Source: a virus
Virus record (IMG/VR): IMGVR_UViG_3300027708_000059
DNA: 64,000 bases
Direction: 5' to 3' (one strand)
The notes below the pieces were generated by a model. The model searched no databases, had not been told where the DNA came from, and saw only the letters and a program-made list of their open reading frames with translations. Of the stretch, positions 7,010 through 62,750 are shown in pieces (position 1 is the first letter of the stretch; every line of letters begins with the position of its first letter). The position numbers and the translations under genes were made by a program.

Positions 7010-7725
7010 TACTGTTTACTTACTTGATCATCTTTATTATCAGATGTTTTATCATCATTGATTCTAAAATATGTAGCAAGAAGCTTTTGTGATGTGAGAG
7101 CTAACACCTGGTTTTGCAAATATCCAGGTAGGGCATATTCTTTATCAAGAGGATTTTTACAAAAGTCTTCAAGATTGGGTTCATGTCCACCACAACCACA
7201 TTCAGGATACATTACTTCATTAGGAACATCTTCTTCAAATAAAGCAGAAATTCTTATTGCTTTTAATAAAGGATTGTTAATATATAGATAATCATTCTGA
7301 ATCCAATAGTATTCTTCATTCTTAATGATGGGAAGTTTTATTAGATTTACATATCTATTGATTGTAATTTCTTTTAATTTCTTACCAACACCACTTAATG
7401 CATTTATTGAATAAACTCCTTGTATAATATATTGATAGTTTCCCTCAGCTATACGTGGAAGTTTAAATCTACTTCTTCCAATTGAACAGGGATCTACATA
7501 TTCACAACATTCAGAAATAGAGACTTCCACCATCTCTAAACAAGGAATGGTGGTAAACAATGTATCAGTAGCCCAAAGCTTTCTGAGATTTGTTTCTCTC
7601 TTAACTAATAATAAAGTGTTATTTCTAATCTCAGATGCCACCACTCTATCAGTGATGAGGTTATCTGTTGATAACAATTTGTGCATTGAACGCACATCTG
7701 AAACTACTTTTCTTAATGTTGCCAT
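7009..7725 (-). CDS. hypothetical structural-module protein
   Basis: ORF with ATGA-type overlap to its neighbours. CGCGGHEPN cysteine motif. Confidence 0.4.
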   Translation of the reverse strand: MATLRKVVSDVRSMHKLLSTDNLITDRVVASEIRNNTLLLVKRETNLRKLWATDTLFTTIPCLEMVEVSISECCEYVDPCSIGRSRFKLPRIAEGNYQYIIQGVYSINALSGVGKKLKEITINRYVNLIKLPIIKNEEYYWIQNDYLYINNPLLKAIRISALFEEDVPNEVMYPECGCGGHEPNLEDFCKNPLDKEYALPGYLQNQVLALTSQKLLATYFRINDDKTSDNKDDQVSKQ

Positions 7726-8975
7726 TATAAATATTGTTTGAATATATTTGTCATTCCATCAAATTCATCTATTAGGAATGCTGTAACTTCTGCTTTGGAC
7801 ATTGTGTGACCGTTCTTATCATCCCAAAGACTTTTAGCGTTTGAGAAAGAAGGAATTTGATAAAACTTAATTCCATTAAAATCATGACTCACTTCATGAT
7901 GTTTATCTCCAGTGAATATGTAGAAATTGGAATGATCACTCCAAGAATCTCTATATTCCATTGGAAACAATGCTGCAAGTTTAGCTGGTTTAATTGCATC
8001 TCCATGATTAAACATTAATGCTGATTCACCATAGCTTACGTATTTTCTATATTTAGGAGAACCATCAAATGTAACTCTAGGTTCATTTCTAAAATATGTT
8101 TGTAACCAACTAACTAAATGCCATCCTACATATTCATCATGATTTCCAGCTACATATATAATTTCTACATCATTTGAGTATTGTAGCAACAGTGATGTCA
8201 TTAACACCTCATGTTCACAGATTAGTTTAAATGAATCTTGATATGAACATATGTTCTGTTGAGGAGTTCCTTTGGTGGTCATATTTGTCCACTCACTATT
8301 AAACTCATCAGAACCAATTATATATTTAATTTGAGAAAGATTATTAGACATATTAGCTTGTGCTAATATAACTTCCACCTTATACATGATAGTTGCAAAT
8401 CTATCATAAATATTATTATTTCCATCTATATCATGTTTGTTTAGATGGCTATCTTGTTTATTGATAATAATACAACCATTTCTTTTTGCTGGAGTATATT
8501 TTACCTCAACCATTTCTGGAGAGACTGGTTCATATGTAGATAGGAATTCTACAAATGCATCCTGAAAAACTTCTTCTGTTTTCTTCTTACCTAACCAAGC
8601 TTTAACTTGCCAATGAGGTGTTTCGCCATTACCCCAATAGTTCTGGACATATTTAGTTATTTCCCATTTAGATGTATCAATATTACATTTTTCAATCAAT
8701 TCATCTAGACTCTTAATTTCATTCTTGGAATTGATAACAACTTCTCCTGTTCCCTTTATAAGATCTTCTTCATATTTTAATATCTGTTCCTCTAGTTCAT
8801 TAATATAAACTCCAACCTCAGCATCATCTTGTACAGTTTCTCTATTTCTTAATTCATTTAATAATTCATCAACCTCATTTTCTGTAATTCCAAGCTTTTC
8901 AGCATAGAACTTTTTACTTTTTTTCCAACCTAAAAGTTTTTCAAGTTGTTGTAACAGTTGTTGATTTTCTGACAT
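7725..8975 (-). CDS. calcineurin-like metallophosphoesterase domain protein
   Basis: C-terminal half carries metallophosphatase motifs (YVAGNHDE ... MFNHGDA). Preceded by its own terminator, so it starts a transcription unit. Confidence 0.55.
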   Translation of the reverse strand: MSENQQLLQQLEKLLGWKKSKKFYAEKLGITENEVDELLNELRNRETVQDDAEVGVYINELEEQILKYEEDLIKGTGEVVINSKNEIKSLDELIEKCNIDTSKWEITKYVQNYWGNGETPHWQVKAWLGKKKTEEVFQDAFVEFLSTYEPVSPEMVEVKYTPAKRNGCIIINKQDSHLNKHDIDGNNNIYDRFATIMYKVEVILAQANMSNNLSQIKYIIGSDEFNSEWTNMTTKGTPQQNICSYQDSFKLICEHEVLMTSLLLQYSNDVEIIYVAGNHDEYVGWHLVSWLQTYFRNEPRVTFDGSPKYRKYVSYGESALMFNHGDAIKPAKLAALFPMEYRDSWSDHSNFYIFTGDKHHEVSHDFNGIKFYQIPSFSNAKSLWDDKNGHTMSKAEVTAFLIDEFDGMTNIFKQYL

Positions 8976-25054: not shown

Positions 25055-25341
25055 TATAATTGTTTTAATTCTTCAGCTATATTTTCTTCCACTACAGCTA
25101 GCCATTTATTCAAAGGACAGCTACAGGAAAGGCATTTAGTTTTTGCAGACAGCGTACATCCACAATCTGTGCAATGAACATCCAATCTGAATGTCTTATG
25201 CTTTGTAGAAATAAGAGGACACTCTTTACATATAGAGATTCTCTCTTTAGCCACTTCCTTAATGGCTTTTTTAAGTTTGGCTGGGGGAACTAAGTTGTTT
25301 CTCCATCCTTCATATACTTGTGAAAAATCAATTTTCATCAA
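25054..25341 (-). CDS. zinc-ribbon protein
   Basis: CKEC...CTDCGC...CLSCSC cysteine pairs. Confidence 0.4.
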   Translation of the reverse strand: MMKIDFSQVYEGWRNNLVPPAKLKKAIKEVAKERISICKECPLISTKHKTFRLDVHCTDCGCTLSAKTKCLSCSCPLNKWLAVVEENIAEELKQL

Positions 25342-25678
25342 TCTTTGGTTTTAATGATTCAATTGCCATTCTTATATTATCTAGCTTCACTGTTAACGAC
25401 TGCCTCTTTGTTTCTGTAATATCCTCGTTCAAAAGCGTTTTTTCATGTATTGCTTTAAAATGTAATAACTTATCTATTTGTTTAGCTGCTTTCTTTTTAT
25501 TAAAGAGCATCTTTCCAAATCCAGCTATCTCTACACTATGATTATTAGCCATTGCCTCATTAGTAGATTGATATTGGTGATCTACCACTGCGTCTATTAT
25601 CTTCTCACTTGTAAGCATCTTCACTGCTAACACCCTAACAAGATAATCTTTCACTGACAGACTCCTTGGCTTATCCAT
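25328..25678 (-). CDS. HU/IHF-like DNA-binding protein
   Basis: N-terminal helix region plus VEIAGFGKM arm motif, resembling the bacterial HU fold (GFG.F). Confidence 0.45.
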   Translation of the reverse strand: MDKPRSLSVKDYLVRVLAVKMLTSEKIIDAVVDHQYQSTNEAMANNHSVEIAGFGKMLFNKKKAAKQIDKLLHFKAIHEKTLLNEDITETKRQSLTVKLDNIRMAIESLKPKIDEN

Positions 25679-26021
25679 GTGTAATTTTTATTTCCATTTG
25701 AATATCCTTTTCAAAATTCAGAATAATCACTGGATTAACCTTCACCTTTGTTCCGTCCTTAACCAACACCCCTATCTTCTTCAGCTTACTAATCATATTG
25801 TTAATTGTAGGAGACGTTGTATTGTATTTTGCACAAAACTCTTGTCTGATGTTGGCGTAACTGATGTTTCCTTTAATGGCAGCAAAAGCTATCAATTGAA
25901 CTTCTCTTTGTGTAAGATGGAGATTGTTAATGGCTGACAAAACATTATAATACATCTGAGCAACAGCATATTGATCCCCTAAAGGCTTTTTAAGCTTCTG
26001 AACAATTACACTATTTTCCAT
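25671..26021 (-). CDS. winged-helix transcriptional regulator (first gene of leftward operon)
   Basis: HTH-like segment (TQREVQLIAFAAIKGNISYANIRQEF ... ISKLKKIGVLVKDG). Confidence 0.4.
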   Translation of the reverse strand: MENSVIVQKLKKPLGDQYAVAQMYYNVLSAINNLHLTQREVQLIAFAAIKGNISYANIRQEFCAKYNTTSPTINNMISKLKKIGVLVKDGTKVKVNPVIILNFEKDIQMEIKITHG

Positions 26022-26123: not shown

Positions 26124-26360
26124 CTATGCAGGTTTCCAAAACACCATAATAACATTAACAAAAAACAACCCTATAATCAATTCCTCTTCTGTAGAACCAT
26201 CATCTAATGTATATTCATTAAAAGACAACCCTGTATAATAATAAGGATTGTTAAGTGCTTTAATTTCAAATGTAGTTGTTAACTCTCTATATCCCCTAAA
26301 CCCATACACTAAAGCCAACACTAACAAAAATCCTGCAAAGAATAACAATGTCTCAATCAT
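26124..26360 (-). CDS. small membrane protein
   Basis: 78-aa hydrophobic ORF (MIETLLFFAGFLLVLALVYGF...). Confidence 0.35.
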   Translation of the reverse strand: MIETLLFFAGFLLVLALVYGFRGYRELTTTFEIKALNNPYYYTGLSFNEYTLDDGSTEEELIIGLFFVNVIMVFWKPA

Positions 26361-26394
26361 AATAAATTTGTTTATACGTATATGGAATTAATTA

Positions 26395-26605
26395 CACCTT
26401 CCCCACCCACTCACCCCAAAGGTCAATGTTTATTTTAAGACCACCAAATGTTTTTCCAGATATGTGCATATATATGTGAGAATGTCCCCCCTATATTAAA
26501 AATTTTTTATAAGCCCCCCCACCCCATTATATTGGGGAGAGAGAAGGTTACTCCACATATCAACCCCTCCTAAGTTTGGGCAAGTGGGTGTAATCCCCAC
26601 ACTAA
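26395..26605. other. C-rich / G-quadruplex-prone tract at divergent junction
   Basis: CCCCACCCACTCACCCC, GTCCCCC and GCCCCCCCACCCC tracts plus the inverted partner GGGCAAGTGGGTGTAATCCCCACAC, in a genome that is otherwise about 30% GC. Confidence 0.5.
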
Positions 26606-26624
26606 AACATTGCCTCTCATCATT

Positions 26625-27017
26625 ATGCCATTAGAATTTAAAAAGTATGAATCAGCAGAAGCAGGTATTTTCGAAGATCTTGGAACTATCAGATCTGTTG
26701 CAGGTAAAGGCGGAGAAATTGGTTTCATTCCAAAGAATTGGAATAACACTGCAAAGAACGTTGCAATTGTTATCTTCAAGAAGAATGGTACTTCTGCCAC
26801 AGTATCAGCAAGCAAGCCACTAAGCGTTGCACTGCGTGCTAAAGAAGTCAGCATTCGTCAGTTGATGAAGTTTCAGTTAACTGAAGCTCCTAACGGAACA
26901 ATCTTTGTCAGTATGCCAGGTGGTGGTGCTCCAATTCAAAAGCACGCTGTTGACAGCATCAAAGATGAAGACTTTGAGGTGGAGGAATTGTCTCACGAGG
27001 ACACTATTGCAATGTAA
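26625..27017 (+). CDS. early protein, GC-anomalous (about 43% GC), acidic C-terminus
   Basis: The ORF track start at 26610 is TTG; the first ATG is at 26625. Followed by a strong terminator. Composition differs from the neighbouring genes. Confidence 0.55.
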   Translation: MPLEFKKYESAEAGIFEDLGTIRSVAGKGGEIGFIPKNWNNTAKNVAIVIFKKNGTSATVSASKPLSVALRAKEVSIRQLMKFQLTEAPNGTIFVSMPGGGAPIQKHAVDSIKDEDFEVEELSHEDTIAM

Positions 27018-27025
27018 TGCAATCT

Positions 27026-27057
27026 AAGAAAGGGCTAATCGCCCTTTCTTTTCTTTT
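27026..27057 (+). terminator. rho-independent terminator
   Basis: GAAAGGGC-taatc-GCCCTTTC followed by TTTTCTTTT. Confidence 0.7.
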
Positions 27058-27377
27058 ATATACAATCTTTAAGCTGTAAACTGCAAGAGAATAGTAAACT
27101 TTATATAGTATTTGTATATAATATAATAGGTGTATCAACAGTCTTGGAATATAAACAACATTTTCAAACAGCTATATTATACAAATGTAACATACATATA
27201 GCATTAACATATTACAATTGTAATGAGACACAATAATCAGATGTACACTTATAAGATAGAGATAGGCTTATAAGAGCAAAGCAGGTACATCAGTGATAAA
27301 TATTTAATGCATTAGATTGTTATTAAATATCATTCTCATTGCAATTGTATTTTTATTCACACACAAAAAACAAAATT

Positions 27378-27527
27378 ATGAAAGAGTATATAATTACATA
27401 CCAACGTACAGATGGTTCTTTTAGATTTACATTCATTGATGCTAATAACATTGATCAAGCTAAAGAATTAGTATATAATGATAAATTAGATTGTGTTCAG
27501 ATATTAAGTGCTGAATGTAATTACTAA
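27378..27527 (+). CDS. small early protein (49 aa)
   Basis: An internal ATG of the 27339 ORF sits about 18 nt after the conserved TTCACACACA motif. Confidence 0.35.
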   Translation: MKEYIITYQRTDGSFRFTFIDANNIDQAKELVYNDKLDCVQILSAECNY

Positions 27528-27542
27528 AGTTTATTCTCCTGG

Positions 27543-27596
27543 GACACAATAATCGTCAACTGTGGTCATCATGCTACACGTTTGGGTTATTGTGTC
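27543..27596. repeat. perfect 10-bp inverted repeat with 34-nt spacer
   Basis: GACACAATAA ... TTATTGTGTC, inside a 340-bp noncoding stretch. Confidence 0.5.
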
Positions 27597-27880
27597 TACG
27601 AGATTTTAATGCACCAATCTATCTTCCCAAGGGATAGCAGTTATAACATAGTCGAGGTTAGTAGACTTTATATAATCAACTTAAGATAAGGTTATATAAA
27701 GAACGAAAGCCTAAAATCCACATATTGGAGTAGACGTACAAAAATGTTATAGCTGAGTGCAGAGGGATTTTATGTGGTGATACATGGATTAACCAAATAT
27801 ATTGGACAATTAATTGTATTCCAGACAGCAGGAAGACTGCTCACCACATTTTTCATTTACACACATTAAATAATAATTAT

Positions 27881-29390: not shown

Positions 29391-29488
29391 TCGTTTTTTT
29401 TTATTAGCAGTTAAAAAGGACTCTGGGTATTTCTATACCTGGAGCCATTTTTATTCATTTATTCACACACATTAAAAAATTATTAATT

Positions 29489-62611: not shown

Positions 62612-62647
62612 AAAAAAGCTCCTTAATAGGGAGCTTTTCTTTTAGTC
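62612..62647. terminator. bidirectional terminator between convergent blocks
   Basis: A8 - AGCTCC-ttaata-GGGAGCT - TTTCTTTT. Confidence 0.6.
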
Positions 62648-62750
62648 CTATAATACTGAGACTATAGGGGGGCTTGCCAGTTTTATTTATTATTACTTTC
62701 TAGGCAGTTAGGACATGTTCCTTCATAATATATATTATGAATAGAGCATA

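Follow-up and report, generated by a model that had tools for sequence, protein, structure and literature searches.

The region 26395-26605 of the viral sequence IMGVR_UViG_3300027708_000059 from IMG/VR (64,000 nt; the whole of this stretch is referred to as the window in the following) is probably a bidirectional transcription-control region located at the switch between the late and the early genes of the phage, a reading to which we assign a probability of roughly 55%. As judged from the sequence, the region would combine a host-type leftward promoter, an array of C-runs, a rightward core that is not of host type and, behind this core, a swappable cassette. In such an arrangement, the host sigma-A RNA polymerase would start the structural and packaging operon leftward from a promoter with the elements TTTG and GACCTTTG, and the start region, rich in guanine and cytosine (GC), would keep this promoter hard to open until it is activated. 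The C-runs, which lie upstream of both starts and around an AT tract, would provide phased contacts for a protein or a polymerase. Rightward early transcription would begin at or just before the core, carried out either by an injected virion polymerase or by the host enzyme together with a phage factor, and the cassette, consisting of leader, first early gene and terminator, would be exchanged behind the fixed core.

An earlier note on this DNA had picked out the tract as a C-rich anomaly within a low-GC genome, and this description was borne out. The GC content of the window is 0.24-0.38 per kb and about 0.31 overall, and C-rich strings are present at 26401-26417 (CCCCACCCACTCACCCC), 26483-26491 (TGTCCCCCC), 26513-26525 (GCCCCCCCACCCC) and 26578-26602 (GGGCAAGTGGGTGTAATCCCCACAC). 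Seven of the 35 plus-strand runs of at least four Cs in the window fall within 26401-26598, and the best 250-nt segment elsewhere in the 64 kb has far fewer. With about 0.11 such runs expected per 200 nt, the Poisson p is about 1e-11, not yet corrected for some 320 windows. The top G4Hunter scores of the 64 kb were also obtained here (-1.92 for 26386-26427 and -1.72 for 26498-26536). The predicted location at a divergent late/early junction proved correct as well: the tract occupies a gap of 264 nt between two divergent operons, the first members of which are an open reading frame (ORF) of 78 amino acids (aa) at 26124-26360 on the minus strand and an ORF of 130 aa at 26625-27017 on the plus strand. 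The terminase, portal and capsid genes are situated to the left of the junction, and the DNA polymerase, primase and helicase genes to the right.

The junction element was found in every relative retrieved. In total, 31 distinct junction variants were gathered from the close lineage (about a dozen), from the wider family via the large terminase (TerL) and from the wider family via the core motif, and variant counts given below refer to this set. The earlier note had held that absence of the tract from close relatives with the same gene order would speak against its significance; the tract was kept in all 31 variants. Within the window the element is single-copy. Identity to the window amounted to 86-100% in the first C-rich box (box 1, 26401-26421) and to 80-95% in 26456-26548, the latter range being similar to that of the flanking coding genes. 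Between these two segments, the sequence 26422-26455 was only 29-56% identical in the lineages that differ there, with flanks of 80-100%. This variable block can be taken as an internal neutral control, indicating that the rest of the junction is under constraint. Searches of the INPHARED phages by megablast with the junction region and by tblastn with the 130-aa protein gave no match, and a scan of the genome collection with the core motif yielded no matches. An exact-pattern scan of IMG/VR with CCCCACCCACTCACCCC returned matches solely in unrelated high-GC phages; the corresponding scan with AAGTTTGGGCAAGTGGG returned 15, of which 14 were unrelated coding sequence and one came from the contig of a relative (L004; contigs of relatives are numbered in this way where they have to be told apart).

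On the leftward side, the minus strand from 26448 to 26414 reads TTTG-GTGGTCTTAAAATAAACATT-GACCTTTG-GGG. The elements of this putative promoter and the gene that it faces are as follows:

26445-26448, minus strand: -33 element TTTG; TTTG or GTTG precedes the -7 box by 19-21 nt in 29 of the 31 variants
26425-26444, minus strand: promoter spacer of 20 nt, GTGGTCTTAAAATAAACATT; this is the variable block and the sole part of the junction that varies freely, lying between two conserved boxes
26417-26424, minus strand: -7 box GACCTTTG, to be compared with TAnnTTTG; relatives outside the sublineage have TATCTTTG, TACCTTTG or TAACTTTG
26401-26417, minus strand: first C-rich tract CCCCACCCACTCACCCC, on the minus strand GGGGTGAGTGGGTGGGG; directly 3' of the -7 box, conserved in all variants, G4Hunter score -1.92
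26124-26360, minus strand: first leftward ORF, opening the structural and packaging block; hydrophobic protein of 78 aa, the same gene being called in relatives, with homologues 74-95% identical

The motif TAnnTTTG at positions -12 to -5 represents the -7 box of Flavobacterium sigma-A promoters (PMC9723704). At the matching place, the order (T/G)TTG, 19-21 nt, TAnnTTTG and G-run was present in 29 of the 31 variants (e.g., TATCTTTGGGG, TACCTTTGGGG and TAACTTTGGGG), the remaining two being without a match. The box of the window, GACCTTTG, which is common to four variants of the window's sublineage, fits TAnnTTTG at seven of the eight defined-or-free positions. It is positioned 57-64 nt upstream of the ATG of the 78-aa ORF and points to this gene. 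The same promoter type (TTTG-N19/21-TATCTTTG) was found at two further places on the minus strand, at 26072-26042 upstream of a 116-aa ORF (25671-26021) and at 9035-9003 upstream of a 416-aa ORF (7725-8975). By its sequence, the leftward element is therefore well supported as a canonical Bacteroidota sigma-A-type promoter: both boxes, the spacing of 19-21 nt, the orientation and the distance to the first leftward gene correspond to those of this promoter class. The element differs from the class by a G-run of 4-7 nt directly after the -7 box and by more G-runs in the first 20 transcribed bases, and such G-runs were not seen at the two other promoters of this type in the window. As the G-rich stretch behind the -7 box and the first C-rich tract are the two strands of the same segment, this tract holds the predicted start (at about 26412, minus strand) and the first bases of a leader predicted to be some 50 nt long. 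The proposal that the tract acts as the leader of an early gene has to be modified in this respect, as its first C-rich part falls instead in the start region of the leftward transcript, behind a host-type promoter. In the crAss-like phage phi14:2, host RNA polymerase transcribes the middle and late genes, and the occurrence of host-type promoters ahead of the leftward genes agrees with this. A hairpin within the variable block was also considered and rejected, as neither its position nor its sequence is conserved and the block is better explained as promoter spacer.

The leftward block of the window encodes a large terminase and a portal protein that match PHROGs families, a capsid protein matching Pfam Crass_capsid, and tail proteins of the types CrAss_Ring_1 and CrAss_Ring_2. 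The rightward block encodes DNA polymerase, primase, helicases, rIIA/B, ribonucleotide reductase and UvsX. The closest TerL matches to named phages were Leptolyngbya phage Lbo-JY46 (41%) and Cellulophaga phages (31%), and lake metagenomes contain the exact proteins of the window. By its gene content, the phage is classified as an uncultured freshwater crAss-like phage without a close cultured relative. IMG/VR holds 274 TerL relatives; the 80 of them listed are 82-98% identical, mostly 82-85%, and the largest contigs among these 80 measure 102-118 kb. TerL relatives had been binned with bacterial metagenome-assembled genomes (MAGs) in three cases, two of Sediminibacterium (L188 and L190) and one of Cytophagales (L191). 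A further contig of the family, L189, was binned in a 'Clostridium' MAG, and one of the MAG-binned family contigs (among L188-L191) has a length of 112 kb. Bins of this kind (L188-L191) indicate a possible host and are at the same time a sign of bin contamination. Shine-Dalgarno sequences were absent ahead of the start codons of the window. Based on the Sediminibacterium and Cytophagales bins together with start codons that lack Shine-Dalgarno sequences, the host is most likely a member of the Bacteroidota.

On the rightward side, the most prominent element is the following:

26534-26552, plus strand: rightward core GGGGAGAGAGAAGGTTACT (family consensus ATGGGAGGGGAGGGTACT, GGGAGrrGAGGGTACT), present in the 31 junction variants and unique in the window; candidate early start element

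The most conserved junction string of the family is (C/T)ATGGGAGrrGAGGGTACT, which reads TATTGGGGAGAGAGAAGGTTACT (26530-26552) in this lineage, and the core was present in every family member that was reached by an independent route. No TAnnTTTG motif was found beside the core in the window or in the family variants. A sigma-70-like TTTATA/TATATT pair (26506-26533) is located by the core and was seen in the window's lineage only; as it is replaced by CATG, CCAA and other sequences in the wider family, a host sigma-70-like promoter was rejected as the general rightward promoter. Similarly, TAAATTTG at 26363-26370 on the plus strand was considered as a rightward host-type -7 box and rejected for lack of a -33 box and because the wider family does not have it; the match was put down to chance in the AT-rich sequence around the start codon of the 78-aa gene. 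From the sequence, we infer that rightward early transcription would start at or just before the core and, by analogy, that a non-host polymerase, i.e., an injected virion RNA polymerase, or the host enzyme with a phage factor may act there. Within the group of phi14:2 and crAss001, the early genes are read by an injected virion RNA polymerase, and in the one experimental study found, the early transcripts of phi14:2 had no common sequence motif upstream of them. For the window phage, such a polymerase is assumed from the family, and by analogy with phi14:2 and crAss001 it would be the obvious candidate for the enzyme acting at the core. A T7-like single-subunit RNA polymerase, a candidate prompted by TATAGGGG-like strings, was not found among the rightward ORFs.

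Two small hairpins are associated with this part of the junction, CCCCA-TTATAT-TGGGG (26521-26537) and GTGGG-TGTAATC-CCCAC (26584-26600), with about -4 kcal/mol as DNA and z values of -1.2 and -0.45, respectively; the loops in relatives are 2-8 nt long, and covariation was not seen. Virion-polymerase promoters of phage N4 have stable stems of 5-7 bp with 3-nt loops, placed at a fixed distance from the start on its upstream side. The junction resembles N4 P1-P3 and the early regions of phi14:2 and crAss001 in that it is situated at the head of the early operon beside the structural block, is devoid of host-type boxes and has small hairpins. In contrast to the hairpin promoters of N4, however, it is the purine-rich primary sequence (GGGAGrrGAGGGTACT) that is conserved here, and the hairpins are weak. 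A more far-reaching proposal would be that the core together with the strand-asymmetric array of G-runs and C-runs, phased at about 30 nt, is the site that a crAss-type virion RNA polymerase recognizes or enters, with folding of the G-strand or a phage protein perhaps holding the duplex open and the site perhaps being located at the leading genome end. We consider this proposal doubtful. If true, it would provide the first early promoter defined by sequence or structure for the class of crAss-type virion RNA polymerases. CrAss-like phages are among the most abundant phages known. The junction offers a concrete, testable candidate for the start of early transcription in a crAss-like phage, with the neighbouring host-type promoter as an internal control; if the conservative reading alone holds, it would be an ordinary divergent promoter region, nicely resolved and of unusual base composition.

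The remaining C-runs and the AT tract are located between the two predicted start regions:

26486-26497, plus strand: second C-run with TATATT, CCCCCCTATATT; the run is C6 at 26486-26491 and measures 5-7 nt in relatives
26492-26513, no strand assigned: AT tract TATATTAAAAATTTTTTATAAG, 22 nt, between two C-runs; ATATTAAAAATTTTTTA is invariant in the close lineage, and the tract is unique in the window
26514-26525, plus strand: third C-rich tract CCCCCCCACCCC (C7-A-C4 at 26514-26525); a run of C5-7 is found here in every close relative

The segment 26486-26497 forms a direct repeat with 26522-26533, 36 nt apart. On the early-sense strand, three to nine runs of at least four Cs were present per variant (31 of 31), and runs of at least four Gs numbered one to four. 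The spacing between adjacent C-runs has its mode at 28-33 nt (48 of 137 spacings), a count that is descriptive only since the sequences are related. In some relatives, the array is built from tandem units of about 30-33 nt, TTGACA-N-CCCCCC-TA, and contains palindromes such as GTTCCACGTGGAAC. Among the C-runs compared, no flanking consensus was kept beyond the C-run itself. From these patterns we infer that the C-runs would act at the level of DNA, as phased contacts for a protein or polymerase, and not as folded RNA.

Phased C-runs next to an AT tract might also belong to a replication origin, with the runs serving as iteron-like initiator sites, the AT tract as the unwinding element and divergent transcription possibly assisting the opening, as at the primary origin of T7. 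The cumulative GC skew has its minimum at about 27 kb, and the switch from C-run to G-run between 26525 and 26534 coincides exactly with the flip in strand composition; the skew minimum, however, is equally explained by the switch in gene orientation. Further features suit an origin, such as the uniqueness of the junction element in the window, the 22-nt AT tract between GC-rich boxes and the spacing of 28-33 nt, which approximates three helical turns, as well as the tandem TTGACA-N-CCCCCC-TA units of about 30-33 nt in relatives. However, the repeat unit consists of little more than the C-run, without conserved flanks, and no DnaA-box-like or other known origin signature was identified. Less than 1 kb from the junction, the minus strand encodes an HU/IHF-like protein (25328-25678; Bac_DNA_binding, 26 bits) and the winged-helix-like protein of 116 aa mentioned above (25671-26021), which has weak matches to Phage_rep_O and HTH_Mga below the cut-off. 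By their sequences, both are candidate binders of the junction, and their proximity would be in line with an origin; the Phage_rep_O match, however, reaches 17.6 bits compared to a Pfam cut-off of 28.7 (E 0.006), and a search of PDB sequences gave no relative. Overall, we regard an origin at this position as improbable and favor a function of the array in transcription.

Homopolymeric C/G tracts in promoter spacers are known from phase-variable genes, e.g., Bordetella fim and Neisseria opc and porA. Similar to these, the C7 run of this lineage is placed between -35-like and -10-like hexamers and varies by 1-2 nt in length between lineages. In contrast to the phase-variable tracts, the runs are short here (5-7 nt), and the wider family has not kept the hexamers.

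The base composition had also led to the suggestion that the minus strand of the tracts forms G-quadruplexes (G4s). An absolute G4Hunter score of at least 1.5 (scoring window of 25) was confirmed for the tracts of the window and, on the same strand, for 29 of the 31 variants. Nevertheless, a G4-forming strand in the strict sense was not substantiated, as each tract has three runs of at least three Gs and the canonical four-run motif is absent from the window; it occurred with loops of at most 7 nt in 8 of the 31 variants and, in a relaxed form with loops of at most 12 nt, in 11 of 31. A G4 on the minus strand or an i-motif on the plus strand might itself be the signal, either by keeping the duplex unwound for a polymerase dependent on a single-stranded template or as an RNA G4 in the leftward leader, in which box 1 would appear as GGGGUGAGUGGGUGGGG. 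In addition to the strong and strand-specific scores, it fits this idea that gp66 of phi14:2 was assayed on denatured DNA and that no motif was found for the early promoters of that phage. On the other hand, the small proportion of variants with a complete motif is accompanied by run lengths that shrink in close relatives, e.g., from C7+C4 to C6+C3, and a folded G-strand or C-strand as the actual signal is considered very unlikely.

An internal inverted partner and a 10-bp palindrome had been proposed as further structural elements. The inverted pair (26404-26419 and 26575-90, 16 nt) is present and 81% complementary; however, it does not behave as a maintained helix. In the close lineage 92% of its positions are paired, which can be attributed to both arms being conserved for other reasons, as no compensatory changes were found and all eight changed cells break pairs. 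In addition, swaps of the downstream cassette bring in a different 3' arm. The palindrome CATATATATG does exist at 26468-26477 but is specific to the strain, relatives having CATATGTATG or CATATGTGTG instead. It is located in a conserved block:

26456-26485, no strand assigned: block TCCAGATATGTGCATATrTATGTGAgAATGT, conserved in the alignments and unique in the window; contains the palindrome site 26468-26477

The idea of an invertible promoter, in which the inverted repeats 155 nt apart would enclose an inverting segment, was rejected, since reverse-complementing the internal segment does not give the variant upstream sequence of L025 and L027.

Downstream of the core, the following features make up the first early cassette:

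26553-26624, plus strand: leader of the first early gene, with AACCCC at 26562-26567 and the hairpin GTGGG-TGTAATC-CCCAC at 26584-26600
26625-27017, plus strand: first early gene, 130 aa, with an acidic C-terminus and no match in Pfam, PHROG or PDB
27026-27050, plus strand: strong intrinsic terminator closing the cassette, a 10-bp stem followed by a T-run

A mosaic boundary between lineages is situated directly after the core, and leader, first gene and terminator are replaced as a unit. Behind the same core, other cassettes encode proteins of 133, 140 or 128 aa or contain other ORFs (L040, L041, L043, L046, L048, L054, L065, L142 and L152). Two elements, AACCCC and the hairpin, persist through the replacement of the remaining leader and the gene, the hairpin with an invariant stem and varying loops. 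In each cassette, AACCCC is found about 10 nt after the core, and in most of them the GGGG-loop-CCCC hairpin is placed 25-60 nt before the ATG. The AlphaFold model of the 130-aa protein had a mean predicted local distance difference test (pLDDT) score of 55.5 and was too poor for a fold search. T4-type phages are reported by Arbiol, Comeau and Krisch to carry promoter-early stem-loop (PeSL) cassettes, in which a conserved early promoter and a stem-loop flank shuffled small early ORFs of unknown function. The junction is comparable in that its swappable first early gene is enclosed by a conserved core, a hairpin that is kept and a terminator; it is different in that there is a single cassette position, at a divergent junction, and in that the conserved flank is not a sigma-70 early promoter. 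That the first early gene is exchanged while the control element ahead of it stays fixed is relevant to early functions directed against the host.

The conserved leader elements might alternatively suggest that the first early gene has a long 5' leader with structure, of the riboswitch or attenuator type, or that the region is a structured non-coding RNA. The alternating segments GGGGAG..., AACCCC, GTGGG and CCCAC downstream of the core could indeed pair in alternative ways, and the GGGG-loop-CCCC hairpin survives cassette exchange with varying loops. However, folding was ordinary: the rightward leader had a z value of +0.47, the leftward leader one of +1.13 and the junction as a whole one of -0.44. 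When 22 leaders of the family were folded jointly with RNAalifold, a single invariant hairpin of 4 bp was left (covariation term -0.14), and the long-range inverted helix showed no compensatory changes. In Rfam 15, no family reached its gathering score in the whole window, and at E of at most 1 two implausible eukaryotic families appeared, both outside the tract. Moreover, the GTGGG-TGTAATC-CCCAC hairpin has no U-run behind it and leaves the start codon uncovered. Thus, the earlier suggestion of a structured 5' leader could not be upheld, and an RNA of this kind appears highly improbable.

The junction may also coincide with the physical ends of the genome, i.e., with a short terminal repeat or cohesive ends and a terminase site, in which case the C-run array would be a packaging signal; this could coexist with the promoters, as is the case at the T7, N4 and crAss001 genome ends. 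A precedent is crAss001, which has a direct terminal repeat of 576 bp and an early operon at the right genome end, in the record beside a non-coding divergent junction of about 0.6 kb. Contigs from three lineages (L026, L029 and L030) begin at the same nucleotide, GGKTA|CT, and L028 begins 2 nt earlier; coming from the late side, L051 ends at GGGTACTACA, 5 nt past this point. More generally, 41 of the 80 TerL loci end upstream of TerL, and of the 14 listed that end 1.9-2.7 kb from TerL, eight end within the junction of about 300 nt. Three of these eight are genome-size contigs of 104-114 kb (L067, L072 and L080). In the 103,660-nt contig L072 the first 29 nt occur only once, which fits a linear contig broken there; a terminal direct repeat was accordingly not seen on this one contig for these 29 nt. 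Like the junction, the terminal-repeat regions of T7, N4 and crAss001 are non-coding, extend over a few hundred bp where the early genes begin and contain short repeated motifs; they differ by having no sequence similarity to the junction, and by the first 29 nt of L072 being unrepeated. However, at least 20 independent assemblies read straight through the junction, and the ends in the wider family scatter over box 1, the T-run, the core and the leader without a common nucleotide. For the short contigs starting at the boundary, the far end is likewise a break, located at the next conserved non-coding block. The clustering of ends can be explained by assemblers, which work on de Bruijn graphs, breaking at a conserved hub between strain-variable cassettes, and the mosaicism required was directly seen. 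Leptolyngbya phage Lbo-JY46 was considered as a guide to the terminus and discarded, as its record simply starts at the first ORF and is uninformative on ends. A genome terminus at the junction is thus rated as rather unlikely.

Several points weigh against the interpretation of the tract as a bidirectional transcription-control region. Contig ends are enriched at the junction, and phased repeats with an adjoining AT tract could also be expected of an origin or a packaging site. The -7 box of the window's own strain, GACCTTTG, opens with G where the consensus has T. Strict matches to the promoter pattern numbered six in the window compared to 2.2 +/- 1.6 in shuffles, a modest excess. Both the leftward and the rightward start sites are predictions from sequence. 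The sigma-70-like pair by the core makes the host enzyme possible for rightward transcription in the window's lineage, which cannot be assumed for the family. Finally, a gene for the virion RNA polymerase was not found; the search for ORFs with the DFDxD motif of such two-barrel polymerases covered the 64-kb window and the flanks that could be added to it, all but about 40-50 kb of a genome that measures about 105-118 kb in relatives, and gave none.

Longer junctions were observed in L065, L072, L127, L128, L139, L140, L144, L160 and L185. These contain the perfect palindromes GTTCCACGTGGAAC and GTTTCACGTGAAAC, an inverted repeat GCATGAA-N-TTCATGC and tandem TTGACA-N-CCCCCC units. By their sequence, these palindromes and repeats look like regulator-binding sites that would be missing or degenerate in the window's lineage. 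In L050, the junction sequence is left just past ATATTAAAAATTTT for the unrelated ATATGCAGGAAATGGAAGAGGACG..., which affects the last 75 nt or so upstream of an 83-aa gene; this is either a rearranged variant or a chimeric assembly. The only other copy of the 8-mer CCCCCCTA in the window is located on the minus strand at 62672 (CCCCCCTATAGT). The sequence GTCCTATAATACTGAGACTATAGGGGGGCTTGCC (62640-62680), which contains this copy and is flanked by the terminator of the last rightward gene on one side and by the end of the following leftward block on the other, resembles on its plus strand a T7-type promoter (TAATAC...TATAGGG). It is identical in four contigs of the same species, and conservation is therefore uninformative at this site.

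Beyond the first early gene, some 830 nt (27051-27880) contain one or two small doubtful ORFs (49-62 aa) and, at 27213-27228 and 27334-27349, an inverted repeat of 16 nt with 94% identity. This sparse region recalls phi14:2, the early region of which opens with two long, highly transcribed intergenic regions that were reported as non-coding RNAs of unknown function. A motif TTTTTATT..(T)CACACA(C/T)(A/T)AAA occurs on the plus strand at 27346-27370, 27849-27872 and 29452-29478, in each case 10-20 nt upstream of an early ORF and twice just after a terminator-like hairpin. The related sequence CCCCACACTAAAAC is found at 26595-26608, ahead of the first early gene, and motifs of the TTTTTATT type may represent a signal for early gene expression.

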